DNA of 64,000 bases from Candidatus Moraniibacteriota bacterium (GTDB taxonomy: Bacteria > Patescibacteriota > Minisyncoccia > Moranbacterales > UBA1568): assembly GCA_963743885.1 (NCBI GenBank), contig CAVURJ010000001.1:502321-566320 (forward strand), read 5' to 3'. Positions 36,185 to 56,706 of this stretch are shown here, piece by piece; position 1 is the first letter of the stretch, and each line of letters begins with the position of its first letter. A program made the position numbers and the translations under genes. Under the pieces are notes generated by a model. That model was not told the DNA's origin. It searched no databases and saw only the letters and a program-made list of their open reading frames with translations.

Positions 36185-36817
36185 GTGATTGACCTCATTA
36201 TGCATTTTTTCGGCATCGATCTCATCACGCTCATCGAAGCAGTCGGTTATGCCGGTCTTTTTGCTATCGTCTTCGCTGAGACAGGACTTTTCCTCGGATT
36301 CTTCTTGCCGGGCGATAGTCTGCTCTTCGTAGCAGGATTCCTCGCGGGACAGGGGATCTTCTCACTTCCGATGCTCATCGGCGGGCTTTTCGTTTCGGCA
36401 GTGCTCGGCAATCTGCTCGGCTATGAGTTCGGCAAACGTGTCGGCCCGAAGCTTTTTAGTCGCGATGACTCGTTCATTTTTAAGAAAGCCCACGCGCTCC
36501 GGGCGCAGGGATTTTATGAGAAGCATGGCGCGAAGACAATTGTACTCGCCCGTTTCATGCCGATTGTGCGCACGTTCGCACCGATCGTCGCCGGTATCGG
36601 CAAGATGCATTATCCAGCCTTCGTAGCGTACAATGTCCTCGGCGCCGTGCTCTGGACGTCGATGCTCGTGTTGCTCGGGTATTTCTTAGGCAGCGTCATT
36701 GATGTGGATAAGTATCTCTTGCCGATCGTGCTTTTGATCGTCTTCCTCTCGTTTTTGCCGGCTATCATGGCCTATTTCAAGGAGCGGCGTCTGGCGAAGG
36801 AGACTATAGCAAAATAG
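36185..36817 (+). CDS. DedA/SNARE-associated family membrane protein
   Basis: 210 aa, FLGFFLPGDSLLFVAGFLAG...TIVLARFMPIVRTFAPIVAGIGKM, typical DedA motifs. Confidence 0.75.
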   Translation: MIDLIMHFFGIDLITLIEAVGYAGLFAIVFAETGLFLGFFLPGDSLLFVAGFLAGQGIFSLPMLIGGLFVSAVLGNLLGYEFGKRVGPKLFSRDDSFIFKKAHALRAQGFYEKHGAKTIVLARFMPIVRTFAPIVAGIGKMHYPAFVAYNVLGAVLWTSMLVLLGYFLGSVIDVDKYLLPIVLLIVFLSFLPAIMAYFKERRLAKETIAK

Positions 36818-36912
36818 TCTTAGCGGGGCTTTGACAAAGCCTAAAACAAGGAGTAGGATAGGAAGGTATCTTTACCGCAAGGAAGGTATCTTTTTTTTCA
36901 GGCATATCCCGT

Positions 36913-37437
36913 ATGTACCGGATGCTCAGGAAAATCGCCAGTACTCCCAGGCTTATCGTTCCCGAAAAGGAGCTTCTCGCGCTCGATATCGAGGGGATTG
37001 GTCAGGAGCTCGAGGCTTCTATCAGGAGAATGTTCAATGGTTCGCTCGCTATCCGTGAGGTAGCGGCTGGATCGAGCAATGCCGAGGAGCAGGAGCTCAC
37101 GGCGCTCACGAATGCGTACTATGATGTCGAGCGATTCGGCATCCATTTTGTCGCGTCTCCGCGCCATGCCGATATGATCATGGTGACCGGTCCAGTCTCG
37201 CGTAACATGGCACAGGGGGTTCGGCATACCTATGAGGCGACGCCTGATCCAAAGATCGTGGTTGCGGTTGGCGATGGCGCGATCGATGGTGGCGTGTATC
37301 GCGGATCCTATGCTATCCATGACAGCCTCGAAGAGGTGATCCCGGTCGATTTCAAGATCCCGGGCGATCCGCCGTCTCCGAAGATGGTGCTCGCTGCGTT
37401 GCTTCAGATGCTCCGTGATATGGAAAAAGAACGTTAG
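36913..37437 (+). CDS. NuoB/HycG-like small subunit of a group-4-hydrogenase/complex-I-like module, without cysteines
   Basis: Family hallmarks ERFGIHFVASPRHADMIMVTGPV and PKIVVAVGDGAIDGGVY. The four [4Fe-4S] ligand positions are S, A, D and D (GSSNAEEQE, GDGA, PGDPP). The protein contains no Cys. Confidence 0.75.
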   Translation: MYRMLRKIASTPRLIVPEKELLALDIEGIGQELEASIRRMFNGSLAIREVAAGSSNAEEQELTALTNAYYDVERFGIHFVASPRHADMIMVTGPVSRNMAQGVRHTYEATPDPKIVVAVGDGAIDGGVYRGSYAIHDSLEEVIPVDFKIPGDPPSPKMVLAALLQMLRDMEKER

Positions 37438-37440
37438 TGT

Positions 37441-39492
37441 ATGGAACTCCCATTCTTCATTTCGCCAGCCAGTATTCTTCTCCTGATTTCCGTCTTCCTT
37501 TCCGGAGGTATTGGAGCGTTGTTTTTATCGCGTTTCTTCGATAGCCGCTTGGCCGGTCTTTGGGCGCATGCAGTCGCATTTGTTGGTTCCCTGTGTGGAC
37601 TTCTGATTGCCGGATCGGTGCTTTTTTATGGGCAGGGGATCGCGTTCGCACTTCCATCGGTATTTCCTGGGCTCTCCTTCGAGTTCCGTGTTGATGGTCT
37701 CTCGGCATTTTTCCTTGCGGTCATATCGCTCGTCGCGTCGGTCGCGTCGCTGTATGGTATCTCCTATCAGAAGCATTTTTACGGCAAGTACGATCTCGGC
37801 ACGTTTGGGCTTTTTTACAACGCATTCGTCGGCAGTCTGATGCTGGTTACCATGGCGAACCATGCGCTCTTCTTCTTGTTTGTTTGGGAGATCATGTCGC
37901 TCGCGTCGTACTTCCTGGTTGTTTTCGAGCATCACGAGGCAGAGAACGTCAAAGCTGGTTTTCTGTATTTCCTCATGACACATTTCGGTACGGCGTTCAT
38001 CACGCTCGCATTCTTCCTCGCTTTTAAGGCGACGGGAGAGTGGAGTTTTGATGCGTGGCGTGCCGCTGCCGGGACGATCGCACCGGTGCTCCAGACGGGC
38101 ATCTTCGCGGCTGCACTTATCGGATTTGGCACGAAGGCGGGTATCATTCCGCTTCATATTTGGTTGCCGGAGGCGCATCCAGCCGCACCATCACACGTTT
38201 CCGCCCTCATGTCGGGCGTGATGATCAAAACGGCTATCTTCATGTTTATCCGTGTCTTCTTCGATTTTTTCCCGGTGGCCGGGACGGAGTGGGGGCTCAT
38301 CTTCCTTGTCTTGGGTGGCGTCTCGTCTCTCCTTGGCGTGCTGTATGCGCTTTCCGAGCACGATCTCAAGCGCTTGCTCGCCTATCATAGCGTCGAGAAT
38401 ATTGGTATCATCCTGCTCGGTTTCGGTGCGGGACTCGTCTTCTTCAGTCTGCATCTCGAGACCTTCGCATTGTTTGCGCTCGCGGCGGCGCTTTATCATA
38501 CGATGAATCATGCCATCTTCAAGGCGCTGCTCTTTCTCGGCGCTGGCTCGGTCGTCTCGGCGACTGGTACGCGCAATATGGAAGAATACGGCGGTCTCGC
38601 TAAGCTTCTGCCGGTTACGTCGGCGCTCTTTCTGATTGGTTCGCTCGCTATTTCTGCTTTCCCGCCGTTCAACGGTTTCGCGAGCGAGTGGCTCACGTTC
38701 CAGGCGCTTTTCGCTGGTATTGCTTCGGCGAGCGTCGTCATCAAATCCGTCTTCATCTTCGCGATTGGCAGTCTGGCATTTACGGGCGGTCTCGCGGCGG
38801 CTTGTTTCGTCAAGGCGTTTGGCTCGACTTTCTTGGCCCGGCCACGGAGTGAGCACGCGCGGCATGCACATGAGGCAGCCTGGCCGATGATCGCAGCGAT
38901 GACAGTGCTCGCACTCCTCACACTCCTCCTTGGTGTTTTCTCGACGACGGTTATCGCGGCGCTCGTCGGCGTCGTGGCGAGCATCGGGCTCACCCAGCCG
39001 CTCACGCTCCAGTTCCCGTTCATGGATTTTCTCGTGGAGCGCGAGCAGTTCGCTGTGCTGCCGCTCGATGGATTCGCGCTCGCGTTCCTTGCAGTCTTCG
39101 CTATCGTGGCGGCGATCGTCATGTTCATGACGCGCTCACGCAAGGTCGTCATCAGCCGCACCTGGGATTGTGGTACGCCGCTTGCTCCGCGCATGGAGAT
39201 CACGGCTGGTAGCTTCTCGCGTTCGCTTGTCACCATCTTCCGTGGCATCCTCCGCTCGACCAAACAGACCGATACTGAGTATCATGACGAGAACATGCGC
39301 TACTTCATCAAGTCTCAGGAGGTGAAGACAGAGATCGGCGATCCGTATCGCGACAAGCTCTATCGCCCGATCAATACGCTCCTGACGTTCTTCGCTTCCC
39401 GGGCTCGCCGTATCCAGGGCGGCAGCGTGAATATCTATCTCCTGTATATCTTCGTCACGCTCGTGGTGTTGCTCATTTGGGCTTCTCGCTAA
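37441..39492 (+). CDS. Antiporter-like membrane subunit (NuoL/HyfB/HycC family)
   Basis: 683 aa polytopic protein. Conserved WLPEAHPAAPSHVSALMSGVMIKTAIF motif of complex I / Mrp antiporter-like subunits. Confidence 0.75.
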   Translation: MELPFFISPASILLLISVFLSGGIGALFLSRFFDSRLAGLWAHAVAFVGSLCGLLIAGSVLFYGQGIAFALPSVFPGLSFEFRVDGLSAFFLAVISLVASVASLYGISYQKHFYGKYDLGTFGLFYNAFVGSLMLVTMANHALFFLFVWEIMSLASYFLVVFEHHEAENVKAGFLYFLMTHFGTAFITLAFFLAFKATGEWSFDAWRAAAGTIAPVLQTGIFAAALIGFGTKAGIIPLHIWLPEAHPAAPSHVSALMSGVMIKTAIFMFIRVFFDFFPVAGTEWGLIFLVLGGVSSLLGVLYALSEHDLKRLLAYHSVENIGIILLGFGAGLVFFSLHLETFALFALAAALYHTMNHAIFKALLFLGAGSVVSATGTRNMEEYGGLAKLLPVTSALFLIGSLAISAFPPFNGFASEWLTFQALFAGIASASVVIKSVFIFAIGSLAFTGGLAAACFVKAFGSTFLARPRSEHARHAHEAAWPMIAAMTVLALLTLLLGVFSTTVIAALVGVVASIGLTQPLTLQFPFMDFLVEREQFAVLPLDGFALAFLAVFAIVAAIVMFMTRSRKVVISRTWDCGTPLAPRMEITAGSFSRSLVTIFRGILRSTKQTDTEYHDENMRYFIKSQEVKTEIGDPYRDKLYRPINTLLTFFASRARRIQGGSVNIYLLYIFVTLVVLLIWASR

Positions 39493-39505
39493 AAATCCTG
39501 CCACT

Positions 39506-40480
39506 ATGCATATCGCATTCATCATCCTCCAAGTGCTTGCCGTACCGGCTCTCTCGCCGCTCATGATTGGTATCATCCGCCGGCTCAAGGCGCGTCTTCA
39601 GAACCGCTCTGGTGCGAGTGTCTTCCAGCCGTATCGCGATCTCTGGAAGCTCTTCCATAAGGATGAGGTGATCTCTTCGGATGCCTCGTGGATCACGCGT
39701 TTCTCACCGTACCTTCTATTCTCTATCACGATCCTTGTCGGTATGAGCGTGCCGGTCATGACAGCTATCCCGATTTCGTTCGATGGTAGTGGTCTGCCGA
39801 TGCTCCCGTTCCTGATCTCTGGTGATTTCATCGTTATCATCTATCTTTTGGCGCTTGGGACGTTCTTCCTGGCACTTGCCGGCATGGATGCTGGATCGGG
39901 TTTCGGCGGTTTTGGTGCGAGCCGTGAGATGACGGTTGCGGCGCTCGCCGAGGGCGGACTCTTCTTCTCGCTTCTGGTCGCGTCAATTGCTGCTGAGAGC
40001 GGCAATGCCATGCTGATGGTCGGGCATCTTGCAGCGCTTCCGCTTCAGTCGTTCATGCCGCTCTTTATCGCGTTCCTCGCGTTTGCTATCGCGCTTCTGG
40101 CAGAGAACGGCCGCTTCCCGGTCGACAATCCGGCGACGCACCTCGAGCTCACCATGATCCATGAAGCGATGATCCTCGAGTATTCCGGCAAGCGTCTGGC
40201 GCTCATGGAGTGGGCTGCTTGGAATAAGCTCACGATCTTCATCGCGCTCGGAGCGAATATCTTCTTTCCGTGGGGGGTTGCGACGGAGCTTTCGGCCGCT
40301 CTGGCTGGAGTGATCGTCCTTTCCTCGGTACTGTTCGCTATAAAGAGCGGTATGCTGCTCGCATCGATCGCGCTCATCGAATCGACCATGGCCAAGTTCC
40401 GCATCTTCCGCATTCCTGATCTCCTGTTCACTTCGTTCGTCCTGGGCGTCATCGCGCTCGGCGTCATCATTACACTCTAG
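39506..40480 (+). CDS. NuoH/HycD-like membrane subunit
   Basis: 324 aa, 8 TM. N-terminus MHIAFIILQVLAVPALSPLMIGIIRRLKARLQNRSGASVFQPYRDLWKLF as in HycD/NuoH. Confidence 0.7.
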   Translation: MHIAFIILQVLAVPALSPLMIGIIRRLKARLQNRSGASVFQPYRDLWKLFHKDEVISSDASWITRFSPYLLFSITILVGMSVPVMTAIPISFDGSGLPMLPFLISGDFIVIIYLLALGTFFLALAGMDAGSGFGGFGASREMTVAALAEGGLFFSLLVASIAAESGNAMLMVGHLAALPLQSFMPLFIAFLAFAIALLAENGRFPVDNPATHLELTMIHEAMILEYSGKRLALMEWAAWNKLTIFIALGANIFFPWGVATELSAALAGVIVLSSVLFAIKSGMLLASIALIESTMAKFRIFRIPDLLFTSFVLGVIALGVIITL

Positions 40481-40483
40481 CTT

Positions 40484-41146
40484 ATGACCGGACATTTCGC
40501 AGAAATATTCTTCCTGCTTGATCTCGTCGCCTTTCTCACAGCGATCATCATGCATCTCGTCAGGCGCAACAAGAATCTTGTTGGGCTCTATGCACTACAG
40601 TCCGCCGCCGTAGGCGTACTCCTTATTGGGGCTGGTATTGCAGAAGGGGAGCAGAGCCTCGTCTGGGTCGGCGTGCTGACGGTCGCTATCAAGGCTGTCT
40701 TGGTGCCGATTTTCTTCTCTCGTCTGCTCCGTCAGTTCGGTGTCCAGGCATCCGCGAGCAGCTACCTCTCGACGCCGCTTACGCTCGCTATGCTCATGGG
40801 ACTCGTCCTCTTCGCCTATTCTCGTGTCTTCATGCCGCTCTCGGCGCTTCTGCCACAGGCGATCGGGTCGCTTTCGTTCAATCTGGCCATCATCTTCGCT
40901 TCGATCTTCCTCATGATCAATAGGAAGGGCGCCTTCACGCAGATGATCGGCGTCCTCTCACTCGAAAACGGTATTGTGCTCTTCGCAGCGCTCATCGGCA
41001 TCGAGCAGCCGCTCGCGCTCGAGATCGGCATCATCTTCGACATCACGGTTTGGGTCGCTATCGGTAGCGCGTTCATCGGGATGATCCATCGCCAATTCGG
41101 ATCGCTTGATACCGACGAATTGAGAAATCTGACTGAAGAAGACTAG
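40484..41146 (+). CDS. HyfE-like small membrane subunit
   Basis: 220 aa, about 6 TM. Size and hydropathy match the hydrogenase-4 component E family. Confidence 0.55.
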   Translation: MTGHFAEIFFLLDLVAFLTAIIMHLVRRNKNLVGLYALQSAAVGVLLIGAGIAEGEQSLVWVGVLTVAIKAVLVPIFFSRLLRQFGVQASASSYLSTPLTLAMLMGLVLFAYSRVFMPLSALLPQAIGSLSFNLAIIFASIFLMINRKGAFTQMIGVLSLENGIVLFAALIGIEQPLALEIGIIFDITVWVAIGSAFIGMIHRQFGSLDTDELRNLTEED

Positions 41147-41207
41147 AGCGTATCTCAAAATTCACCGCTTGTATGCAAATCCCATAAAAACTCACGCTTG
41201 TCGGCTG

Positions 41208-41305
41208 AAACATCAGGATTTCGGCTGCACATTCCAGAAAATTTCTCGGATTATCGCGATAGTCCTCGAAATTTTCTGAACTGTTCGCTCGAAATCCTGA
41301 AGTTT
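41208..41305. repeat. Nested ~100-bp imperfect palindrome inside the operon
   Basis: Outer arms gaaacatcaggatttcg / cgaaatcctgaagtttc. Inner arms cagaaaatttctcgg / cctcgaaattttctg. Centre is the perfect palindrome tatcgcgata. Confidence 0.55.
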
Positions 41306-41349
41306 CATCTCGACATGAATTTTGAGATCCGCTCTTAGTTACATCACTT

Positions 41350-42804
41350 ATGCTGCTTACATTCCTCATCGCCACGCCGTTCCTCGCCGCCTGTTTCGTC
41401 GCGCTCATGCGGCCCAGGCACATGCGTCTCATCGAAGGGGCGGCAGTAGCTGCTTCGGCCATCGCGCTCGGCCTTGCGATCGCGCTCGTACCGCAGACGC
41501 TTGCGCATGGAGCTGTCAGGGCTTCAGAGCTCTTTTCTATCGATGCGCTTGGCGCTTTCATGTTGGTCATCATCGCTCTTTCCGGATTTTTCGCTAGCCT
41601 GTATTCCGTCGGTTATCTGCGGGCTGAAGTAGCGAAGGGTATCGTCGGTCCGAGCCGTGTCCGCCAGTTCTTCCTGCTCCTCGAATTCTTCCTCTTCGCG
41701 ATGTCGCTTGCCGTCTCGACTATCAGCCCGATCGTCATGTGGATTTCTATCGAGGCCACGACACTCTCGACTGCATTCCTCATCAGTTTCTACAACAAGC
41801 CGTCCGCGACAGAAGCAGCCTGGAAGTATCTCATTATCAACTCGCTCGGACTACTCCTCTCGCTTCTCGGTACGCTGCTCTTCCTCGCGCTGCCGGAGAT
41901 GCGTACAGGATCGATCACCTGGGACATGCTCCGCGAGGCCGCGGCCAGCATGCATCCGCTCGCGGTCAAGATCGCTTTCGTCTTCATCCTGGTCGGATAC
42001 GGGACGAAGGTTGGATTGGTGCCGCTTCATACTTGGAAGCCTGATGCCTATGCCAAGGCGCCGACCCCGGTCGTCGCGCTTCTGGCGGGTGTGTTGGTCA
42101 ACGTTGCTCTCTTCGCTATCCTCCGCTTCAAGACGGTGGCTGATGTGACGGTCGGATCGGAATTCGCCGGCAGCCTCCTGATATTCTTCGGTCTCCTTTC
42201 TATACTACTCTCAGCGCTCATCATCTTCGTGCAGAAGAATTACAAGCGGTTGCTCGCATATTCCGGCATCGAGCATGCAGGACTCATCGCGCTTGGCTTC
42301 GGCTTCGGCGGACTCGGGACGTTCGCGGCGCTCCTCCATATGCTCTATCACGCGCTCGTCAAGATGCTGCTCTTCTTCGCGGCTGGCAATATTTTCCTCA
42401 GGTATAGCTCGACGAAGATGAAAAATGTCACTGGCGTCCTGTCGGTACTGCCGGTTTCGGGACCGATCTTTCTTGGTGGATTTATCGCTATCACTGGTCT
42501 GCCGCCGTTCGGGCTCTTTGCGACCGAGATGACGATTCTCTCTTCAGGTATGGCGGCACATCCATGGATCGCTGGTACGGTACTCTTTTCTCTGGCAGTC
42601 ATCTTCTTCGGATTTTTCCGCCATCTCTCAGGCATGATTTTCGGATCGGTACCGGAAGGCGTAAGCCGCGGCGAATCCCGCCTGCTCACCCAGCTGCCAC
42701 TCCTCTTGCTTGCGGCGCTTATCGTCGTTTTCGCCTGGGATTTTCCTGAGGGACTCCTCGATCTCATCCGTCAGGCTGCCACCGATCTGGCTGTCAATCA
42801 CTAA
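41350..42804 (+). CDS. Antiporter-like membrane subunit (NuoN/NuoM/HyfF family)
   Basis: 484 aa. Conserved VPLHTWKPDAYAKAPTPVVALLAGVLVNVALFAILRF. Confidence 0.75.
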   Translation: MLLTFLIATPFLAACFVALMRPRHMRLIEGAAVAASAIALGLAIALVPQTLAHGAVRASELFSIDALGAFMLVIIALSGFFASLYSVGYLRAEVAKGIVGPSRVRQFFLLLEFFLFAMSLAVSTISPIVMWISIEATTLSTAFLISFYNKPSATEAAWKYLIINSLGLLLSLLGTLLFLALPEMRTGSITWDMLREAAASMHPLAVKIAFVFILVGYGTKVGLVPLHTWKPDAYAKAPTPVVALLAGVLVNVALFAILRFKTVADVTVGSEFAGSLLIFFGLLSILLSALIIFVQKNYKRLLAYSGIEHAGLIALGFGFGGLGTFAALLHMLYHALVKMLLFFAAGNIFLRYSSTKMKNVTGVLSVLPVSGPIFLGGFIAITGLPPFGLFATEMTILSSGMAAHPWIAGTVLFSLAVIFFGFFRHLSGMIFGSVPEGVSRGESRLLTQLPLLLLAALIVVFAWDFPEGLLDLIRQAATDLAVNH

Positions 42805-42815
42805 TCCTGCTTCCT

Positions 42816-44402
42816 ATGACTGACACAACGACTATCCTTACCCGCTTCGGCCTCGCCGAGTATCGGGCGACGAAGGAGGGGAAGCTCCATCTCTTTGAAG
42901 TCATGCAGCCGGACCTGGAGCAGGTCATACGGACGCTCCGTCATGATCACGGTCTCCGTCTCAAGACGATCGCTGCATCCGATGAGCGGGCTGATCGCGG
43001 CGCATTCCGCATCCACTATGTCTTCAGCATTCCTGGTGATGACTGCTTCTTGGTGCCGTTCATTTCGGTAGCTGCTGATCAGTCCGGATTTCCATCTATG
43101 ACGCCGGTCGCTCACGAGTGCTCCGTATACGAGCAGGAAATCAAGACTTTTTTCGGCCTCGAGCCAATCGGCCATCCGGATGCGCAGCGTATCACTCTCC
43201 ATCGCGAGAATTTTCCTGAGGATATCCATCCGCTTTGCAAGGAGTTCGCCTGGGATACCGAGATTGCTCCGATTACGGGCAAGTCGATGCCGGAGTTCGC
43301 TCGCTTCGAAGGGGAGAGTGTCTATGAGATCCCGGTTGGTCCAGTGCATGCTGGTATCATTGAGCCGGGGCACTTCCGCTTCAGTGTGCTCGGCGAGGAG
43401 ATCCTGCGCCTTGCGCCGCGTCTCGGCTATGTACACAAGGGGACGGAGAAGCTTTTCGAGACGCTGCCGATGGACAAGAAGCTCCAGCTTTCCGAGCGCA
43501 TCTCGGGCGACAGCTCGTTTCATCACGCGCTCGCATTTGCTCAGGCGGTCGAATCGATGGCTGGAATCGAGATCTCCGAGCGCGCGAAAATGCTCCGCAC
43601 CATCTATGCCGAGCTCGAACGTCTCGCCAATCATTTCAATGATATTGCATTTATCATGCTCGATACGGGACTGTCGTTCGGTGGCAGTCATGGGACGCGA
43701 CTCCGTGAGCGCGTCATGCAGTGGAATGAGCGTCTGACGGGCAGTCGCTTCCTACGCGGCACGGTCGCTCTGGGCGGTGTGACGCAGGATATCGTCAAGG
43801 AGATGGCTGAAGAGCTTCAGGATGATCTTGAGGTTCTCGAGAAGGACTTCATGGAAGTGATGGACGTCGTCAGGGAGAGTGATTCGCTCGAGAACCGTCT
43901 CCGCGGGACTGGCCGGCTTGATGCAGAGATCGGACGTGATCATGGCGCGGTCGGTATCGCAGCTCGGGCGATCGGTGATGAGCTCGATGCTCGCGCCGAC
44001 CATCCGTATGCGGCGTATGATATGGTGCAGTGGAGCATCCCGACGGAAACGAACGGCGATGTCCGCGCCCGCTTCCAGGTGCGCGTCAAAGAAGTCTTCC
44101 AGTCGTTCCGTATCCTCGGACAGATCCTCACGCTCCTGCCGCATCGCGAGGGCGTACTCTCGATGCCTCAGGCGAAGCTTCCGGCCGATGCGCATGCGGT
44201 CGGCATCGTTGAGGGCTGGCGTGGTGATATCGTCTACTTCATCATGACCAATCATGACGGCGAGATTTCGCGTGTGAAGGTGCGTGACCCGTCGTTCCTC
44301 AACTGGCAGGTCTTCCCGTATGTCGTGACCAATGACATCGTTCCGGATTTTCCACTCATCAACAAGAGCTTCAACCTTTCCTATACCGGAAACGACCTCT
44401 AG
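42816..44402 (+). CDS. NuoC-NuoD fusion / HycE-like large subunit without [NiFe]-site cysteines
   Basis: N-terminal NuoC-like domain plus NuoD/large-subunit domain VGPVHAGIIEPGHFRFSVLGEEILRLAPRLGYVHKGTEKL. No N-terminal RxCGxCxxxH motif and no C-terminal DPCxxCxxH/R motif. Confidence 0.75.
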   Translation: MTDTTTILTRFGLAEYRATKEGKLHLFEVMQPDLEQVIRTLRHDHGLRLKTIAASDERADRGAFRIHYVFSIPGDDCFLVPFISVAADQSGFPSMTPVAHECSVYEQEIKTFFGLEPIGHPDAQRITLHRENFPEDIHPLCKEFAWDTEIAPITGKSMPEFARFEGESVYEIPVGPVHAGIIEPGHFRFSVLGEEILRLAPRLGYVHKGTEKLFETLPMDKKLQLSERISGDSSFHHALAFAQAVESMAGIEISERAKMLRTIYAELERLANHFNDIAFIMLDTGLSFGGSHGTRLRERVMQWNERLTGSRFLRGTVALGGVTQDIVKEMAEELQDDLEVLEKDFMEVMDVVRESDSLENRLRGTGRLDAEIGRDHGAVGIAARAIGDELDARADHPYAAYDMVQWSIPTETNGDVRARFQVRVKEVFQSFRILGQILTLLPHREGVLSMPQAKLPADAHAVGIVEGWRGDIVYFIMTNHDGEISRVKVRDPSFLNWQVFPYVVTNDIVPDFPLINKSFNLSYTGNDL

Positions 44403-47901: not shown

Positions 47902-48477
47902 ATGGAACAGCCAGCATCACAACCGCAGACAGAAGAGAAGAAGATGTCCCGTCTGGAGCATCTCGCGTTTGAGGCGCCTCGCCATATCGGCTCGGTGCCG
48001 TCGCTCATCATCCACACGGTCTTTTTCGTGGGCATCTTCGCGCTGCAGATATGGGGTTTTTCCTTCGATCAGATCATGCTCATCCTGACGACTGCTGTGT
48101 CGCTTGAGGCTATCTATCTTGCTATCTTCATCCAGATGACGGTCAACCGCCATGCCGAGCAGATCGAGGAAGTGAGCGAGGACGTCGTGGAGCTGTCTGA
48201 GGACGTGGAAGAGCTCGGCGAGGACATCGAGGACATTTCCGAGGATGTGGACGAGATCGTGAAGGATATCGATACCATCCAGGAGGACGTGAAGGAGATC
48301 AGTGAGGACGTGGAGGAGATTTCCGAGGATGTGGAAGAGCTTGGCGAGGAGATCGAGAAGGACGACCAGGAAGACGCCGTCGAGCGCACTGAGGACCAGC
48401 GCAAGCTCGAGCATATGGAAAAGATTATCGCAGAATTGCTTTCTGAAATCCGTGATCTGAAGCATGAGAAGAAATAG
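47902..48477 (+). CDS. DUF1003-like membrane protein with acidic tandem-repeat coiled coil
   Basis: Two TM helices then repeated SEDVEELGEDIEDISEDVDEI... heptad-like units. Underlying DNA direct repeats. Confidence 0.5.
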   Translation: MEQPASQPQTEEKKMSRLEHLAFEAPRHIGSVPSLIIHTVFFVGIFALQIWGFSFDQIMLILTTAVSLEAIYLAIFIQMTVNRHAEQIEEVSEDVVELSEDVEELGEDIEDISEDVDEIVKDIDTIQEDVKEISEDVEEISEDVEELGEEIEKDDQEDAVERTEDQRKLEHMEKIIAELLSEIRDLKHEKK

Positions 48478-49668: not shown

Positions 49669-50004
49669 TCAACGGTCCGTATCGAGGATTCGGGCGGCGC
49701 GTTTGATGGCGACGAAGCCGTAGGCCCAGAGGAGGGGAAGCCAGATCGGCATCAGACCGAAGAGACTGTTGCGCTCGAAGGTTTCTACGCCGGTACTGAT
49801 GAAAAGGTATTCGGAGACAGTCATAGCGAAGCATCCGAAGACGAGGAAGATGAAGTCGTTCTTTTCGCGCTTGATAGCGAGAGCGACGGCGATGATGATC
49901 ACATAGAGCACAGTGAGCAGGAGGTCATCTGAGACAAGCGGGATCAGCCCGATCATCACGAGTATCGGCAGAGCGTTGAGGAGGATATGGAGGGATTTTT
50001 TCAT
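49669..50004 (-). CDS. Small membrane protein
   Basis: Starts MKKSLHILLNALPILVMIGLIPL. 3-4 TM helices. No family. Confidence 0.4.
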   Translation of the reverse strand: MKKSLHILLNALPILVMIGLIPLVSDDLLLTVLYVIIIAVALAIKREKNDFIFLVFGCFAMTVSEYLFISTGVETFERNSLFGLMPIWLPLLWAYGFVAIKRAARILDTDR

Positions 50005-50570
50005 GGCGTTCCTGTTACTATTGTTTCTATCGGTTTGGCATGGAATTTGATGGCTGTCCCTTTGTCTTTGCACAGCGTAATGGTCGGGTTCGGAAGTTGG
50101 CGGGTTTCTGATACGGGTTCACTTTCGGAATATTGCCCGGTTTGCTTCAGGGGGTCGATATCGATATTCGGGAAATACCGCAAGAAATCTTCGCGCAGCA
50201 TGTCCATGGTGTCGGCGGAAGATGGGATGACGAATTCGATATGTTCCCAGCCGTCGGGATAGTCATGGTCTGGCTTTGGATAGGGGAGCTCAATGCAGGG
50301 AATGGTCCATCCACATACGGAGAGTGGAGTGGCGAGTTTGAATATATCGATTTCCCTTCCGTTGACGATGGCAGAAGAAAGGAGGAGATCGCCTCTTTCC
50401 CGCAGCTCATTTTTTAGCGATTCGATAGAGCTGATATCTTTCATTCTTAGTCCGATATGATCGGATTGGAGACGTGATGTCTCTTCGGATATTCCGAGGT
50501 CATCAAGGTATCGGCTGATCCGCTCCCCGAATTCCACAAGGGCTGATTGTGAGAATGGTTGCGGGTTCAT
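50001..50570 (-). CDS. VOC-fold (glyoxalase/YecM-like) protein
   Basis: 189 aa. Weak YecM/VOC-like pattern (HIGLRMKD...HIEFVIPS). Confidence 0.4.
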   Translation of the reverse strand: MNPQPFSQSALVEFGERISRYLDDLGISEETSRLQSDHIGLRMKDISSIESLKNELRERGDLLLSSAIVNGREIDIFKLATPLSVCGWTIPCIELPYPKPDHDYPDGWEHIEFVIPSSADTMDMLREDFLRYFPNIDIDPLKQTGQYSESEPVSETRQLPNPTITLCKDKGTAIKFHAKPIETIVTGTP

Positions 50571-50623
50571 AAAGATATTGTGGATTTGAGGTGATGTTGG
50601 AACGTATTTGGCTCAACAGAATT

Positions 50624-51202
50624 TTATTTATTAATATAGCCTGCTTTTGCCGCTTCTTCAAAAACATTCTTTAATTTTTCATCTGCCCAGTCCAGATAAT
50701 CTTGTATTTCTGCGGTCGTTATTTTTGTATTGCCTATCTTTACAGCGTCTGGGTAGAATCCTATTTCAGTTTGTAGGTGTGATTCTATGGAAAGCTTTTG
50801 GTGTCTCTTTACCTTTCTTTCGTCTTCTTCCTCATCAAAATTTTCACGAATATCGTGTCGAATGTGATTGCGAATTACAATAATTAAATCACTCAGGCTA
50901 TGAGACTCAGAACCAGATTTCTCGCAGTATTTTTGTATACCCGCAAGATCTTCAAATAAACAAGATATCTCGTGTAAGCAATCTAAAACCGAATCTACAG
51001 CATTGTACTGATGAAGTTCTTTTGCGACCTCTGTGTATCTATTTAGTTGCTTTTTTGCTCCTTTTACATATGGAAGCGCAAGTGTCCAAACAATGTGGTC
51101 AGTTTTTCTTTCCTTAATTAATGCATCGGGTGGCATTTCTTTTTTAGGACGACCCTTTATTACATCGCACCCTTTTTTAGCAACTGATATTCCGTATCCC
51201 AT
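50624..51202 (-). CDS. Hypothetical protein, AT-rich, RX4H (HEPN-like) motif
   Basis: 192 aa. IVIRNHIRHDIREN contains an R-x4-H motif. Low GC relative to flanks. Confidence 0.4.
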   Translation of the reverse strand: MGYGISVAKKGCDVIKGRPKKEMPPDALIKERKTDHIVWTLALPYVKGAKKQLNRYTEVAKELHQYNAVDSVLDCLHEISCLFEDLAGIQKYCEKSGSESHSLSDLIIVIRNHIRHDIRENFDEEEDERKVKRHQKLSIESHLQTEIGFYPDAVKIGNTKITTAEIQDYLDWADEKLKNVFEEAAKAGYINK

Positions 51203-51217
51203 AGAATTTGTAAGGGG

Positions 51218-51799
51218 CTATATTATTTTTTGAATAATATTTAGGTCTAACCAGCGAATTAGCATTGTGTATTTTTGAACATAATCAATAAACTGAAGAA
51301 ATAGTATTTGTTCAAATGGTGGAATTTTAGCTAATTCTAGTTTTTTATATTTTTGCCCTTTGTTGTCTGTTGGATGAAAGAATTCGCCATTTAGCCAAAG
51401 ATCAAAAATCTCTTCTGCCTCAATCGTTTCTTCACCCAGATTGAATCGCATACTTGCTCCTGGGGCTAACACTTTTTGCCATGCCATTTTTGCATCCTGT
51501 ACTTTCTTAAATAGTTCAGAGTCTTGGTCTTTTAAAAGAAGGCTGAGCTTATTACATATTGAAAGGAAATGTACCGCCTCTCCTTGCAAGACAAAAGGAC
51601 GAAATCTTAGTAAGAATGACTCAGTTGTTTTTCTATCTGGTCCATCAAAAGCAGTAGAAACATGAGTTCCGTACCTCTCCTCTTTTGCTTTAATGTTTAA
51701 GCTAAGGTTTTTTAAAAATTCTTGATCACCTAAAGCTTCCGATTTTCTATGGAATAATACTAATGTTTCAATTATTTCTTTTCGATTAGGAGTAGGCAT
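51218..51799 (-). CDS. Hypothetical protein, AT-rich
   Basis: 193 aa. No recognisable motifs. Immediately downstream of promoter repeat R1. Confidence 0.4.
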   Translation of the reverse strand: MPTPNRKEIIETLVLFHRKSEALGDQEFLKNLSLNIKAKEERYGTHVSTAFDGPDRKTTESFLLRFRPFVLQGEAVHFLSICNKLSLLLKDQDSELFKKVQDAKMAWQKVLAPGASMRFNLGEETIEAEEIFDLWLNGEFFHPTDNKGQKYKKLELAKIPPFEQILFLQFIDYVQKYTMLIRWLDLNIIQKII

Positions 51800-51854
51800 A
51801 GACGGGGTATTTGTTTTTAAACTAAAACACCCTCTATAATTAAGGCTAACAATT

Positions 51855-51945
51855 GAAATATAGCCCTAAACCAGGCTTCTTACAAGCTTGGTATGGCCTG
51901 AAATCCTAAGCAACAGAAACGGTCTCGCGGCTGGTTTTTTGTAAG
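51855..51945 (-). promoter_or_regulatory. Repeat R1: terminator plus sigma-70 promoter cassette (minus strand)
   Basis: About 90 nt, nearly identical to 55797-55890. On the minus strand reads TTGTAA, 17-nt spacer gaagcctggtttagggc, TATATT. Upstream is the hairpin ccgccatgtcccctggacctctggcgg followed by a T-run. Confidence 0.5.
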
Positions 51946-52001
51946 AAAAAACCGCCAGAGGTCCAGGGGACATGGCGGGGGAAGGAATTTCGTGGAATTC
52001 C

Positions 52002-53646: not shown

Positions 53647-54156
53647 TTAAATAGAGTTTACCTTGTAAAACTCGAACGTTCTGCCACCTCTCGTTTTCTT
53701 TGTCAGCTCTGGCAGGGGAATGAGCTCGGGGTCTACTGTCTCGAATTGCCGGATGCCACCGCCGATAGTGGCTGGGAGCTTGTTGAGGATGATTCTATCG
53801 ATCAGTTTCTCTTTCAGGAAAGCGGTATTGAGGCCGGGGCCGCTACAGAGGAGAATATTCGGACTCATCGTGGCTGCGTCCTGAAGCGAGGAGATCTTCG
53901 CGTAGGCTGCTTTCGGAACGAAAGAATCATCGCGTGTAACGACGATTTTTTTGATAGCCGTGTGTTCGAAAGCGTCTATGAGATTCTGATCGAAAGATTG
54001 GATTGCATCGTAGGTGTTCTTCCCCATGACGAGGACGTCGTATTCGGCCAGAAGCTCTAGGAAATCATCCCAGACCTCATCGGGGATGAAATCCTCGCCT
54101 CCATCCGTCTGTGCGATGAATCTATCCGAAGAGATGACGTTGTAGGCGGTAAGCAT
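53647..54156 (-). CDS. RibD C-terminal domain / DHFR-like reductase family protein
   Basis: 169 aa. VLVMGKNTYDAI...ILNKLPATIGGGI pattern of PF01872-type proteins. Confidence 0.55.
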   Translation of the reverse strand: MLTAYNVISSDRFIAQTDGGEDFIPDEVWDDFLELLAEYDVLVMGKNTYDAIQSFDQNLIDAFEHTAIKKIVVTRDDSFVPKAAYAKISSLQDAATMSPNILLCSGPGLNTAFLKEKLIDRIILNKLPATIGGGIRQFETVDPELIPLPELTKKTRGGRTFEFYKVNSI

Positions 54157-54276
54157 ATGTTTGTTGGGTGAACTGTGGCAAATGGAAATCAGAGCTTATT
54201 ATCAAACGCAGTGAGCGAAATGAGAGCTTGCTCTCATTTCCGAGCGCAGTGCCGGTAAAATCGGGTTCAATACCCG

Positions 54277-54636
54277 TTATTTATTAACCCACCACTGTCT
54301 GAATTCGATCGCTTTTCCTTGATTATCCAGTTTTACATAATAAGCGCCCTTGGAGTCATGAATATTTCCCCTGGTATCTTTAAAGGAAAATTCGTATGAT
54401 GCGCTTCCTTCATTTTCTTTTGTGAGGAGCGTGTTTATTTCGAGCTTAAGAATGTCCTGATCAGAGACTTCTTTCCAAGCACCCTTTACTTCATCCAAGG
54501 AAGTGAGTGGAGGCTCGAAAGGATCTTCGTAGTATTGAAAATTTGAAGAAAGCAAACTATCGATATTCTCGATATCCTTATTGATCCAGATATCTTTCAA
54601 GGATCGGAACCAATTTTCAATTGTGGGGCTGTCCAT
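54277..54636 (-). CDS. Hypothetical protein (possibly NTF2/SnoaL-like fold)
   Basis: 119 aa. AT-rich. Confidence 0.35.
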   Translation of the reverse strand: MDSPTIENWFRSLKDIWINKDIENIDSLLSSNFQYYEDPFEPPLTSLDEVKGAWKEVSDQDILKLEINTLLTKENEGSASYEFSFKDTRGNIHDSKGAYYVKLDNQGKAIEFRQWWVNK

Positions 54637-54671
54637 AATATTTTGCTGTCCCTATGGGACGAAGTTGGAAC

Positions 54672-55169
54672 TTATTTAGGAAGCTTCTGATCATTAGGAT
54701 TGACACTTGAACTTGTGCTTGCAGTGATTTTTTTATTCGTTTCATCTTGATACTCTACAATACTCAAAATACTTTTAAACTCTTCACTTGTAACGATAGC
54801 CTCACCTAAAGCACAAATTTCTTTTAGGTCTTCTTCAAAAGAATCATCATAGATTTCCGTAAGAAGATCATGAACTACTTTATTTCTTTTAGCTCTAAAA
54901 TGATGTAGATCCTGTGCTAGTGTTCCCTTTATCAGTTTAGTTTTATTTAAAAACTCAATAAGTTTATAAAGACTATAATTAGAAACTTCAGTTCTGAGTT
55001 CATTTATAATTTCTGAATCCTTAATTTTATTCGTCTCAACAAAAAAAGAGAAATCGGCATGTAATTTTAAAAGACTCTCTATATAAGCACCTTGAACAAG
55101 AAAGGCTTCAAGGTATTGCTGTTTCAATATTGAACCTCGGATATGATTTGTTAATTCGATGTGTTTCAT
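54672..55169 (-). CDS. Hypothetical protein with HEPN-like Rx4H motif
   Basis: 165 aa. HHFRAKRNKVVHDLL contains R-x4-H. Strongly AT-rich. Confidence 0.4.
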   Translation of the reverse strand: MKHIELTNHIRGSILKQQYLEAFLVQGAYIESLLKLHADFSFFVETNKIKDSEIINELRTEVSNYSLYKLIEFLNKTKLIKGTLAQDLHHFRAKRNKVVHDLLTEIYDDSFEEDLKEICALGEAIVTSEEFKSILSIVEYQDETNKKITASTSSSVNPNDQKLPK

Positions 55170-55224
55170 AAGATTTGTTGGGGCTGTGGGATGGAATTGG
55201 AAAATATTTAAATGTTTTATCGTA

Positions 55225-55794: not shown

Positions 55795-55796
55795 CT

Positions 55797-55890
55797 GAAA
55801 TATAGCCCTAAACCAGGCTTCTTACAAGCTTGGTATGGCCTGAAATCCTAAGCAACAAAAACGGTCTCGCGGCTGGTTTTTTTGTAATGG
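55797..55890 (-). promoter_or_regulatory. Repeat R2: second copy of the promoter/terminator cassette
   Basis: Nearly identical to 51855-51945. Confidence 0.5.
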
Positions 55891-55995
55891 GTATATCTAT
55901 CTAGTCTTAGAAATTAGCATAATACTCTCCGAAAAACAGAAAACCCACCGAAGCGGATTTTCCGTTGGTGGGTTTGTGGCGGTAGAGCTTTTGTC

Positions 55996-56696: not shown

Positions 56697-56706
56697 ATTA
56701 TTGATG

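Follow-up and report, generated by a model that had tools for sequence, protein, structure and literature searches.

The six-gene complex of this ultra-small Patescibacteria/CPR bacterium is, as judged from its genes, a CPR form of the Ehr (energy-converting-hydrogenase-related) complex, and its predicted subunits lack every canonical ligand of both the Ni-Fe site and the proximal [4Fe-4S] cluster. The complex is under strong purifying selection, and we propose, with middling confidence, that it would work as a redox-independent ion-translocating machine that no longer transfers electrons. Because the canonical ligands are absent and no HyfH/HycF/NuoI subunit is present, the sequence excludes any known type of hydrogenase or quinone-reductase activity, as an earlier note on this DNA had held. 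That note left the function of the complex unknown; the kept channel residues, the gene neighbourhoods and the strong conservation of a peripheral arm devoid of cofactors narrow it towards redox-independent ion translocation, a proposal drawn solely from conserved residues and gene neighbours.

The operon (36913-44402, + strand) consists of six same-strand open reading frames (ORFs), with the small-subunit gene first and the large-subunit gene last (Table 1). Pfam and NCBIfam models place all six genes in hydrogenase-4/complex I families and, together with PDB alignments, identify HyfI-, HyfB-, HyfC-, HyfE-, HyfF- and HyfG-like products, in line with the hydrogenase/complex-I-like operon first proposed. 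The complex is descended from group-4 [NiFe] hydrogenases of the Hyf/group-4f type. Its membrane arm is of the FHL-2/complex I type, with a NuoH-like, a NuoK-like, one NuoL-like and one NuoN-like antiporter subunit, and its peripheral cap comprises two proteins, one NuoB-like and one NuoCD-like. Cysteine accounts for only 7 of its 2413 residues (0.29%), compared with 1.04% in the 44 other ORFs of the window, that is, of the whole 64 kb stretch of DNA analysed. Among all window ORFs of 100 aa or longer, none contains a CxxCxxCxxxCP, R.CG.C or DPC..C motif, and the motif scan found neither a ferredoxin-type gene nor a conventional paralogue in the operon or elsewhere in the window, which bears out the reported lack of a NuoI/HycF ferredoxin subunit.

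Table 1. Positions of the operon, its former ligand motifs and its upstream elements in the window.
Feature	Position	Strand	Match or alignment
DedA/VTT-domain membrane protein, directly upstream	36185..36817	+	PF09335, 1.2e-16
Promoter-like site TTGACA-17-TAGGAT, between dedA and small-subunit gene	36831..36859	+	consensus scan, 10/12 matches, pattern match only
Small subunit, NuoB/HycG/MbhJ-like, 174 aa	36913..37437	+	PF01058 (Oxidored_q6/NuoB), 1.3e-23
GSSNAEEQE, former CxxC of proximal [4Fe-4S] site	37069..37095	+	MbhJ GSCNGCDIE, HycG GGCNGCEIE
VGDGAIDGG, former third Cys ligand (G122)	37267..37293	+	MbhJ IGACPTGG
PGDPP, former fourth Cys ligand (D152)	37360..37374	+	PGCPP of MbhJ and HycG
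HyfB/NuoL/MrpA-like antiporter-like subunit, 683 aa	37441..39492	+	NF005086 (hydrogenase 4 subunit B); Proton_antipo_M
HyfC/HycD/NuoH-like membrane anchor, 324 aa	39506..40480	+	PF00146 (NADHdh), 2.3e-37; HycD, 1.6e-41
HyfE-like membrane subunit, 220 aa	40484..41146	+	NF008556, 1.6e-17 (under its cut-off); PF00420, residues 135-217
HyfF/NuoN/MrpD-like antiporter-like subunit, 484 aa	41350..42804	+	NF005044 (hydrogenase-4 subunit F), 1.5e-124
Large subunit, NuoC-NuoD/HycE-like fusion, 528 aa	42816..44402	+	PF00329 and PF00346 (Complex1_30kDa and Complex1_49kDa)
GPVHAGIIEPGHFRF, large-subunit beta1-beta2 loop	43338..43382	+	HycE GPLHVTSDEPGHFRL
RISGDSSFHH (228-237), former L1 motif RxCGxCxxxH	43497..43526	+	HycE RVCGICGFAH
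NLSYTGNDL, former L2 motif DPCxxC	44373..44399	+	NLSYTG (520-525) to HycE DPCYSC

The small subunit contains no cysteine and keeps the motifs ERFGI (residues 73-77), SPRHAD (82-87) and VTG (91-93), as had been read from the sequence before. Among PDB sequences it matches MbhJ (1.4e-27) and HycG (4.9e-24) best, and residue-by-residue alignment to these proteins (6cfw_J and 7z0s_G) puts the four [4Fe-4S] ligand positions at S55, E58, G122 and D152. The loss of the four cysteines was thus correctly recognized in the earlier note, but the replacements are S, E, G and D instead of S, A, D and D; A57 and D121 adjoin the ligand positions and are not the aligned residues. Aligning by phmmer to PDB, by MAFFT of 150 representatives and by MAFFT of 120 homologues, each independently, gave the same columns. 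S55 stands in place of Cys1 and E58 in place of Cys2; in an alignment of 74 homologues, E59 and E61 never vary and E58 shows conservation of at least 90%. In the homologue alignment D121, just before the third position, is invariant and G122 is at least 90% conserved, position 122 being D in divergent CPR relatives. D152 likewise reaches at least 90% conservation, and this position is D in the CPR, Chloroflexota and high-GC (L016) versions. The replacement residues are invariant or at least 90% conserved in homologues of as low as 40% identity. The AF2 model (pLDDT 90.5) matches 6cfw_J (TMt 0.87, rmsd 2.1 A), so an intact NuoB fold is predicted, and at 66-74% identity to CPR orthologues this is the most conserved of the six subunits.

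The large subunit matches HycE over residues 34-525 (1.2e-75) and has no conserved Cys column among 118 homologues. Both CxxC motifs of the [NiFe] site are gone, as previously noticed: in the HycE alignment SGDS (S230 and S233 for the two Cys) takes the place of L1 and SYTG (S522 and G525) that of L2. S230, G231, D232 and H237 are invariant in 118/118 homologues, as are S522, Y523, G525 and D527 in the same set, and the beta1-beta2 loop is nearly all invariant there. This loop is the coupling loop in complex I and in group 4 hydrogenases.

The membrane subunits keep the residues expected of ion channels, the invariance of which was assessed in a 7-sequence alignment of CPR, Chloroflexota and cluster-bearing Ehr proteins. 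The HyfB-like subunit (NF005086 score of 674 bits against a cut-off of 667; matches to HycC and MbhH) retains E150 in TM5 (WEIMS), K232 in TM7, K263 in TM8, K361 in TM11 and E416 in TM12, all of them invariant across CPR, Chloroflexota and one cluster-bearing Ehr. The NuoH-like anchor still has the motifs GASRE, ENGRFPVD and LEYSG, with E141, E149, E200, D207, E214 and E220 invariant. In the HyfE-like subunit the C-terminal half is NuoK/ND4L-like, and about 95 residues of its AF2 model (pLDDT 81) match NdhE/NuoK/ND4L (TMt 0.70-0.78). E161 is the only one of its two NuoK-type Glu residues to be invariant in 54 homologues as well as in the 7-sequence alignment, whereas the invariance of E180, D186 and K70 in the 7-sequence alignment breaks down among the 54. 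The HyfF-like subunit, which matches MbsH and MbhH, keeps E135 (TM5), K220 (TM7), K338 (TM11) and E392 (TM12), likewise invariant in the 7-sequence alignment; at the TM8 Lys position it has Asn (N251), which speaks against an ion-translocating machine.

Loss of the cluster ligands is shared by the relatives of this complex. At the four ligand positions, the 120 nearest 90%-identity clusters, which belong to Patescibacteria wherever a taxon is named, have SEGD (107), NEGD (7), TCDD (4), NESD (1) or SEGR (1), and CCCC is kept in 94 of the 150 nearest 50%-identity representatives. Homologues occur in Patescibacteria including Moranbacteria, Paceibacterota, Howlettbacteria and Azambacteria. In divergent CPR relatives one Cys and three Asp occupy these positions, an arrangement that could be a metal site and that would count against the proposed function. 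One locus (L012) has the six genes in the same order and a small subunit with all four Cys, and its large subunit is already without the NiFe cysteines and carries the same SGD[ST] and SY[ST]GNDL motifs as found here.

The gene neighbourhoods provide further hints. A dedA gene lies directly upstream in 7 loci, and it holds this position in L002, L003, L005, L008, L009 and L010 even where genes farther upstream differ; it is absent next to the operon in L006/L007 and L013-L015. The DedA protein is thus a conserved neighbour and possibly an accessory of the complex. A CPA-type Na+/H+ exchanger gene precedes dedA in L008 and L010, and F1-ATPase genes directly precede the operon in L013, with a distance of about 4 kb between the two in L015. 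These associations are few and in part reflect shared synteny.

Several known systems resemble the complex. The earlier description of an energy-converting-hydrogenase-related module fits a class already named Ehr, and a CPR-specific Ehr clade with a large subunit lacking the metal-binding cysteines (L1/L2) has been published by Jaffe et al. (2020, BMC Biol 18:69, PMC7304191), whose verdict was that it 'likely cannot interact with H2'. Our complex shares with that clade its Patescibacteria range, a group 4-related large subunit and the lack of L1/L2 cysteines. In the part of the paper available to us only the large-subunit L1/L2 motifs are treated, and the Cys-less small subunit, the missing ferredoxin-like subunit, the carboxylate replacements, the channel residues and the neighbourhoods do not appear. 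We found no literature report of additional loss of the proximal Fe-S cluster together with the lack of any ferredoxin subunit; the name Ehr and CPR Ehr without [NiFe] cysteines are already known, and this combination is apparently new. Classic Ehr complexes of the kind described by Marreiros et al. (2013), such as Geobacter sulfurreducens EhrA-1/B/C/D/L/S (PMC7894505), have the same NuoL-like, NuoH-like, HyfE-like, NuoN-like, large and small subunits and a large subunit without NiFe ligands, but they keep an electron-transfer site: the small subunit of L012, a classic Ehr, has all four Cys, and the one described here has none. The Ehr of Margulisbacteria/Saganbacteria has the same subunit set (PMC6349859 Supplementary Note 4); in Margulisbacteria a single fusion protein combines the NuoB and NuoI homologues (PMC6349859), whereas no NuoI-like domain is found here.

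Every subunit has its best matches in E. coli hydrogenase 4/FHL-2 (HyfA-J) and FHL-1 (HycB-G; PDB 7Z0S), with which the complex also shares the NuoC-NuoD fusion of the large subunit, but their [NiFe] site, proximal cluster, HyfH/HycF, HyfA/HycB and formate dehydrogenase are all missing. Pyrococcus furiosus MBS (membrane-bound sulfane reductase, PDB 6U8Y) is likewise derived from group 4, with hydrogenase activity lost and the surroundings of the proximal cluster remodelled (PMC8165549), and its MbsJ, L, M and H match subunits of our complex. Unlike the latter, MBS is a reductase driven by ferredoxin and equipped with an Mrp-type Na+ module; it retains two vestigial NiFe cysteines and three [4Fe-4S] clusters, of which the proximal one is bound by three Cys. 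The Mrp cation/proton antiporter (PDB 6Z16, 7QRU, 7D3U) belongs to the same superfamily, is redox-independent and has a MrpC/NuoK-like element; the HyfB-like subunit finds matches in its MrpA/MrpD-type subunits (8.5e-45 and 7.3e-43). Mrp is the functional model for a possible role of the complex. Mrp has no NuoH-like anchor or NuoB/NuoCD cap, which are present here. The Mrp-specific MrpB/E/F/G-like subunits, thought to form the Na+ path, are not seen in the operon, and Mrp-like antiport is thereby left without direct support.

The former active-site residues are the best-conserved part of the large subunit, and such extreme conservation could mean that chemistry or ligand binding persists there, contrary to a machine for ion translocation only. 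The complex could then still be a catalytic, possibly redox, enzyme, which we consider unlikely. In this case some other cofactor would sit in the altered pocket, for example a mono- or dinuclear metal on carboxylates, His and Ser (small-subunit E58, D121 and D152 and large-subunit D232, H237, Y523 and D527 are candidates; Cys plus three Asp in the divergent relatives), or a soluble protein, for instance a flavoprotein or a group 3b hydrogenase, would dock at the pocket. Carboxylates do recur at the ligand positions (SEGD, TCDD, DAAD, DVDD, DADN, DCDN, ECED), in about 19 of the 33 cases where Cys is replaced, counted over lineages that are not independent of one another. However, no conserved Cys or His cluster of the kind seen in known redox metal sites is present, and no ferredoxin-like wire for electron entry was found in the window or in the relatives' loci. 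CPR bacteria reportedly have neither quinones nor respiratory chains. A four-subunit cytosolic group 3b [NiFe] hydrogenase with HypA is divergently adjacent to the operon in one Paceibacterota lineage (L006/L007), which also tells against the ion-translocating reading, and an HI0933-like flavoprotein gene comes after the operon in the window and, at a distance of about 2.5 kb, in L010, but these neighbours vary between loci. Turnover at the pocket would drive ion pumping, just as the altered proximal cluster of MBS, a precedent for a re-purposed site, became a catalytic centre (PMC8165549).

A second alternative, in our view quite unlikely, is a device that senses pmf or pH or is powered by pmf, in which the cap would be the output and not a passive lid: the cap would be moved by ion flow through the membrane arm, or by the carboxylate pocket becoming protonated, and would gate the channel or act on a partner such as the DedA protein or ATP synthase. 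The cap is at least as conserved as the membrane subunits, the coupling loop is invariant, titratable carboxylates replace a charged redox centre, and several loci have DedA or F-ATPase genes nearby. Such a device is without precedent in the superfamily, and sequence data alone cannot separate it from the antiporter model. That the operon is a functionless relic in decay (a pseudo-operon) or results from a sequencing, assembly or alignment error, for which the loss of all classical ligands and an unusual 203-nt gap between the hyfE-like and hyfF-like genes might be cited, is extremely improbable and effectively refuted by the conservation data, as all six ORFs are intact here and in orthologues from more than 10 loci (identity as low as ~40-55%), each subunit has 120 homologous clusters with the replacement residues conserved, the channel residues are invariant, the ligand columns agree between alignments, and an independent Logan assembly (run ERR12035942) contains the same genes, with an identical product for the single gene sequence-checked.

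For redox-independent ion translocation, then, we envisage a fermentative cell without a respiratory chain, in which protons or cations would still pass through the NuoH/NuoK 'E-channel' and both antiporter-like subunits. A machine working on gradients only has no obvious need for a large, highly conserved peripheral arm. The cofactor-less cap may have been retained to close and conformationally control the NuoH-side channel, and the carboxylates that would line the former Fe-S pocket (E58, E59, E61, D121 and D152) may stand in for the negative charge of the cluster or bind a cation. The complex would most likely act as a secondary cation/proton antiporter or as a pmf-interconverting device alongside the F-type ATPase. 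Beyond the CPR, the cluster ligands are missing as well in Chloroflexota (L011), in Dehalococcoidia and in the high-GC lineage L016, in which the gene order differs; because the loss of the ligands is repeated in these groups, our results suggest that the Ehr scaffold can dispense with the proximal cluster.

Six co-oriented ORFs occupy window positions 36913-44402 and are separated by intergenic gaps of 3-13 nt, with one exception of 203 nt. Based on the Pfam and NCBIfam assignments (see table) and on PDB matches to Hyc and Pyrococcus MBH/MBS subunits (MBS being the membrane-bound sulfane reductase), the six-subunit, hydrogenase/complex-I-like architecture proposed in the earlier note was correct; the closest solved structures are HycG, HycC, HycD and HycE of the E. 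coli formate hydrogenlyase together with the MBH/MBS subunits. The 203-nt exception is a non-coding gap at the hyfE-like/hyfF-like boundary, where the spacing in relatives is 5-75 nt. An independent Logan assembly of run ERR12035942 contains the same genes and also the gap. No Rfam match was found in the gap or the operon, and the plus strand of the gap has no obvious ORF; a minus-strand ORF overlaps it. Across the operon, the GC skew fell to -0.10 and the AT skew to -0.31, whereas GC skew is positive elsewhere, and this shift is probably caused by the T-rich codons of hydrophobic membrane subunits and not by a strand or replication feature.

Features of the operon, of its surroundings in the window and of related loci, with subunit identities computed against the CPR (Patescibacteria) orthologues from ten fetched loci
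Feature	Sequence	Position	Strand	Length	Assignment or remark	Identity
Small subunit	window	36913-37437	+	174 aa	Oxidored_q6 / NuoB family (Pfam, NCBIfam)	66-74%
HyfB-like	window	37441-39492	+	683 aa	Proton_antipo_M; NCBIfam 'hydrogenase 4 subunit B', 674 bits, above cut-off	55-72%
NuoH-like	window	39506-40480	+	324 aa	NADHdh / NuoH (Pfam, NCBIfam)	59-73%
HyfE-like	window	40484-41146	+	220 aa	'hydrogenase 4 membrane subunit' HyfE; C-terminus NuoK-like	39-65%
HyfF-like	window	41350-42804	+	484 aa	hydrogenase 4 subunit F (Pfam, NCBIfam)	53-69%
Large subunit	window	42816-44402	+	528 aa	Complex1_30kDa + Complex1_49kDa; NuoC-NuoD/HycE-type fusion	55-68%
DedA/VTT membrane protein	window	36185-36817			directly upstream of operon	
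Non-coding gap	window	41147-41349		203 nt		
ORF overlapping gap	window	41073-41573	-	166 aa		
Skew shift	window	38001-42000				
191-aa protein	window	47902-48477		191 aa		
Low-GC stretch	window	50001-52000			GC 0.40	
Low-GC stretch	window	54001-56000			GC 0.38	
Partial tRNA-like match	window	56607-56664			Rfam model positions 9-63	
tRNA-Gln	window	56706-56779			Rfam	
hyfE-like/hyfF-like spacing	L002	8462-8537				
hyfE-like/hyfF-like spacing	L008	14250-14256				
Group 3b-type [NiFe] hydrogenase + HypA	L006	4715-9288			divergent from operon	
Group 3b-type [NiFe] hydrogenase + HypA	L007	1082-5655			divergent from operon	
ArsR/HTH_5-family regulator	L012	6731-7081			same strand as operon	
F1-ATPase delta, alpha, gamma, beta, epsilon	L013	1-6144			same strand as operon	
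F1-ATPase beta, epsilon	L015	1-2079			same strand as operon	
Small subunit	L016	6154-6987		277 aa	N-terminal extension	

The small subunit contains no cysteine. In the HMMER alignment to MbhJ/HycG, GSSNAEEQE lies opposite GSCNGCDIE/GGCNGCEIE, VGDGAIDGG opposite IGACPTGG and PGDPP opposite PGCPP. As a MAFFT alignment with 150 representatives gave identical ligand columns, the proximal [4Fe-4S] ligand positions are S55, E58, G122 and D152. The earlier note had read these positions as S, A, D and D; its first and last residues (S55 and D152) stand, whereas A57 and D121 are neighbours of the aligned E58 and G122. Misalignment or sequencing error, which that note had itself raised, does not account for the missing ligands, since three independent alignments give the same columns, 120 homologous clusters are in the same state and an independent assembly contains the same genes. 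In the large subunit, the HycE sequence RVCGICGFAH of the first [NiFe] ligand motif (L1, RxCGxCxxxH) corresponds to RISGDSSFHH, and DPCYSC of the second (L2, DPCxxC) to NLSYTG; the four [NiFe] cysteine positions are S, S, S and G. The alignment to HycE thus bore out the reported absence of both CxxC motifs, and the protein terminates in ...SYTGNDL with no cleavable C-terminal extension. A scan of the window for NiFe, Fer4, CxxCxxC and Walker motifs detected neither a ferredoxin-type CxxCxxCxxxCP nor [NiFe] L1/L2 among the ORFs of 100 aa or longer, and the operons of 12 related loci contain no Fer4 gene; the claimed lack of a NuoI/HycF ferredoxin subunit therefore held for the window. The possibility that the window conceals a ferredoxin or a conventional hydrogenase was rejected on this negative scan and on Pfam assignments of 20 further ORFs, which were housekeeping only. 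Cysteine makes up 7 of the 2,413 residues (0.29%) of the six proteins, compared with 1.04% in 44 other window ORFs.

The sites that have lost these ligands are strongly conserved. Homologues of the small subunit form at least 120 clusters at 90% identity, 65-100% identical to it, and the named clusters among the matches listed belong to Moranbacteria, Paceibacterota or the 'Patescibacteria group'. In the best 120 clusters, the ligand columns read SEGD (107), NEGD (7), TCDD (4), NESD (1) or SEGR (1). When 74 small subunits down to 40% identity were aligned, E59, E61 and D121 were invariant, and E58, G122 and D152 were at least 90% conserved. The best conserved of the six subunits is the cysteine-less small subunit, and its AlphaFold2 model (pLDDT 90.5) superposes on MbhJ (TM 0.87, rmsd 2.1 Å) and also on complex I PSST/NuoB. 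Among the 118 large-subunit homologues listed, S230, G231, D232, H237, S522, Y523, G525 and D527 are invariant, as are nearly all residues of the beta1-beta2 loop PVGPVHAGIIEPGHFRF, and there is no conserved cysteine column. The former active site is therefore the most constrained part of the large subunit and is not decaying. The cap, consisting of the NuoB-like and NuoCD-like peripheral pair, is more strongly constrained than the membrane arm.

The loss of cluster ligands appears to be recurrent. Of the nearest 150 small-subunit representatives at 50% identity, 94 keep CCCC and approximately 25 lack at least two ligands. In a rough neighbour-joining tree (BLOSUM distances, 122 columns), the clade containing the window protein holds SEGD, NEGD, NEGN, DVES, DADN and SVGN forms, and outside it are DAAD (Chloroflexota), SAES (Dehalococcoidia), DVDD, DCDN and ECED; the Chloroflexota DAAD form is sister to the CCCC protein of a cluster-bearing energy-converting-hydrogenase-related (Ehr) locus, L012. 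Because the tree has no support values, the count of independent losses is only indicative. The phyletic distribution of such small subunits, which had been suggested as a check, comprises at least 120 clusters without CCCC, from Patescibacteria where named, and recurrences in other phyla. The six-gene order of the Chloroflexota locus (L011) is the same as that in the window, whereas that of L016, from an organism of 67% GC, is C-E-F-L-S-B; L016 has D, V, D and D in the ligand columns and a large subunit without NiFe cysteines. The extension of the small subunit of this high-GC, non-CPR Ehr carries a single CINCGLC motif and is apparently what is left of a NuoI-like ferredoxin domain once fused there; the protein seems to capture the loss of cofactors midway through a series of steps. 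In CPR lineages of greater divergence (L006 and L013-L015), the ligand columns read T/D, C, D and D. Acidic residues account for approximately 19 of the 33 non-cysteine replacements across the patterns; as the lineages share ancestry, this figure is an observation and does not amount to a statistical test.

Comparison with known systems places the operon among the Ehr complexes. Group 4 [NiFe] hydrogenases (Hyc/Hyf/Ech/Mbh) likewise have a NuoH-like anchor and NuoL/M/N-like subunit(s) encoded beside the large and small subunit genes. In contrast to the window proteins, they possess four L1/L2 cysteines, a four-cysteine proximal [4Fe-4S] small subunit and a 2x[4Fe-4S] subunit (HycF/HyfH/EchF/MbhN/NuoI). 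Ehr complexes are encoded by group 4 homologous clusters whose large subunit lacks Ni-Fe ligands (PMC6349859, PMC10284858, PMC7304191), as is the case here, and they have antiporter-like (Mrp/Nuo L, M, N-type) subunits, to which the two Proton_antipo_M subunits of the operon correspond. Their function has been reported as unknown (PMC6349859, PMC10284858, PMC10432482). Described Ehr complexes keep electron-transfer sites (PMC6349859), usually with an Fe-S subunit bearing the NuoB-like cluster and often a NuoB-NuoI fusion, whereas the window complex has neither the cysteines nor a NuoI-like domain. L012 has six genes in the identical order and a large subunit without NiFe cysteines (RISGDTT / NQSYSGNDL), but its small subunit keeps all four cysteines. 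L012 represents the intermediate state, and the window complex, with neither cluster ligands nor a ferredoxin-like subunit, is one step further. An ArsR/HTH_5-family regulator gene precedes the L012 operon.

Complex I differs in that its N2 cluster is ligated by NuoB with tandem cysteines, which are absent from the window small subunit in alignments to Nqo6 and NDUFS7, and in having 11-14 core subunits, including separate NuoA, NuoJ, NuoK and NuoI and three antiporter-like subunits, compared with only six genes here. The quinone-site residues Tyr87 and His38 of Thermus Nqo4 are not kept in the large subunit: in a single pairwise phmmer alignment to 2fug_4, G231 lies opposite Y87, and an Ile of the GPVHAGIIEP loop lies opposite H38. 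In the HyfE-like protein, the C-terminal half has a NuoK-like fold; similarity to NuoJ is only weak. Mrp antiporters share the TM5 Glu, TM7/TM8 Lys and TM12 Lys/Glu of MrpA/MrpD, with the exception of an Asn in TM8 of the HyfF-like subunit; however, they have MrpB, E, F and G subunits that are absent from the operon, and no peripheral arm, whereas the operon encodes the NuoB/NuoCD cap and the NuoH-like anchor.

It is near certain that the complex is a cofactor-ligand-free CPR Ehr, and the central observation of the earlier note is confirmed, its interpretation supported and sharpened. Large subunits of CPR Ehr that lack the NiFe cysteines have been known since Jaffe et al. 2020 (PMC7304191), whose supplementary figure is confined to the L1 and L2 regions of that protein; the novelty is tempered accordingly. 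In the literature searched, outside which stand the founding papers of Marreiros 2013 and Coppi 2005, no prior description of cysteine-less Ehr small subunits or of the ferredoxin-less state was found. As far as checked, the new features are the lack of every canonical cofactor ligand, including those of the proximal cluster, the conserved carboxylate replacements, the recurrence of ligand loss in other phyla and the link of the operon to ion-energetics genes.

The ion-channel residues of the membrane arm are largely retained. The HyfB-like subunit keeps E150 of TM5 (WEIMS), K232 of TM7, K263 of TM8, K361 of TM11 and E416 of TM12, as well as H239, H246, H353 and H357, and the HyfF-like subunit keeps E135, K220, K338 and E392. 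The NuoH-like subunit retains GASRE, ENGRFPVD and LEYSG, with six acidic residues invariant. In an alignment of seven sequences from CPR, Chloroflexota and the cluster-bearing L012, the canonical residues of the membrane subunits are invariant. Of the two NuoK-type Glu of the HyfE-like protein, E161 is invariant both there and among 54 homologues, whereas E180 and D186 are invariant only among the seven. Sequence search yielded no PDB match for this protein; its AlphaFold2 model matched NuoK/NdhE/ND4L over the C-terminal ~95 residues, with non-significant E-values in the fold search and a consistent NuoK-like superposition.

The window is otherwise an ordinary stretch of CPR chromosome, encoding SMC, S16, L10, L7/L12, DNA polymerase III alpha and tau and NAD-dependent ligase. 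The dedA gene upstream of the operon is also found in L002, L003, L005, L008, L009 and L010, and in the Moranbacteria-like lineage it always holds this position, even where a different set of genes lies beyond it; L008 and L010 have, ahead of dedA, a gene for a CPA-type Na+/H+ exchanger of ~695 aa (PF00999). F1-ATPase genes directly precede the operon in L013 and lie ~4 kb upstream of it in L015, these loci being from two divergent Patescibacteria. In a Paceibacterota genome (L006 and L007), the operon adjoins genes for a complete four-subunit hydrogenase of group 3b type (Fer4 beta, NAD-binding gamma, 256-aa small and 420-aa large subunits) and HypA, so that the cofactor-less complex exists there alongside a conventional hydrogenase. 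In the window, the operon is followed by an HI0933-like flavoprotein gene, and one also lies nearby in L010. None of these neighbours is universal, and jointly they lean towards membrane ion energetics. A contig search with the large subunit gave five loci, several titled 'uncultured Bdellovibrionales'. Because gene content and synteny (rplJ-rplL-dedA-operon) are CPR-like, this label on the MAGs of L002-L005 (CAZATJ01, CAYWLN01, CAYUIR01 and CAZCNN01) looks wrong, or the bins look mixed.

Elsewhere in the window, the Rfam scan found one tRNA-Gln and a weak, partial second tRNA match, for which ARAGORN makes no call. These adjoin two low-GC stretches (compared with ~0.53 elsewhere) with small minus-strand ORFs that mostly lack a Pfam match, the exceptions being YecM, a PGDYG protein, a HAD hydrolase and a RibD_C fragment; the stretches are possibly an island, integrated or gained horizontally, that retains part of a tRNA. 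Two hydrophobic segments are predicted near the N-terminus of the 191-aa protein, whose tail is made of near-repeats (SEDVVELSEDVEELGEDIEDISEDVDEI...), and its matches to DUF948 and DUF1003 are sub-threshold only.

To our knowledge, in every characterised member of the complex I and group 4 hydrogenase superfamily with a peripheral arm, that arm is an electron wire ending at a cluster on the NuoB-like subunit. Because the window complex has no electron path, its ion-pathway residues and coupling loop are conserved and its cap is most constrained, the simplest reading is a redox-independent ion-translocating machine, probably a secondary cation/proton antiporter or gradient interconverter, to which we assign an even chance. 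Such a machine would serve pH or ion homeostasis beside ATP synthase in a fermentative cell that does not respire, with the NuoB/NuoCD cap closing and controlling the channel on the NuoH side; the carboxylate pocket may keep the negative charge once given by the cluster or bind a cation. It is unlikely, on our assessment, that chemistry continues at a new, non-cysteine metal or ligand site, perhaps aided by a partner that docks there; the invariant residues of the former active site speak for this proposal, and the lack of any cysteine in the small subunit speaks against it. Rather less probable is a sensor of proton-motive force or pH, or a conformational device driven by that force, whose output would be the cap, a proposal favoured by the conservation of the cap and of the beta1-beta2 loop. 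An artefact or relic is hardly credible: three independent alignments, 120 clusters and an independent assembly with the same genes agree, and the replacement residues, the former active site and the channel residues are conserved.

How a charge change at the NuoB-like site drives ion pumping approximately 100-200 Å away is a long-standing question. A bold and fairly improbable reading is that the conserved-carboxylate pocket (E58, E59, E61, D121 and D152, with Cys+3 Asp in sister lineages) acts as a charge switch that can be titrated or that binds a cation, giving a natural and widely conserved complex-I-type machine without a redox cofactor. Protonation or ion binding, and not reduction, at the old electron-transfer site would then trigger a conformational wave, which would pass through the beta1-beta2 loop to the NuoH/NuoK E-channel and on to the antiporter-like subunits. 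If this is true, CPR, Chloroflexota and a high-GC lineage have each uncoupled the electrostatic coupling of complex I from electron transfer, and the operon would offer a minimal six-subunit model of how the N2/Q-site charge drives ion pumping.

In summary, the operon encodes an intact and strongly conserved cap and membrane arm in which sites for all known redox cofactors are missing; it is represented by more than 100 clusters (90% identity) per subunit in Patescibacteria, and the same loss is seen in other phyla. The complex is either an ion machine of the complex-I kind, and the first to be free of redox chemistry, or an enzyme whose active site is of a novel type. Its six subunits would make it tractable for cryo-EM and for work on the coupling mechanism, and it is one of the few candidate membrane-energetics devices of CPR besides ATP synthase.
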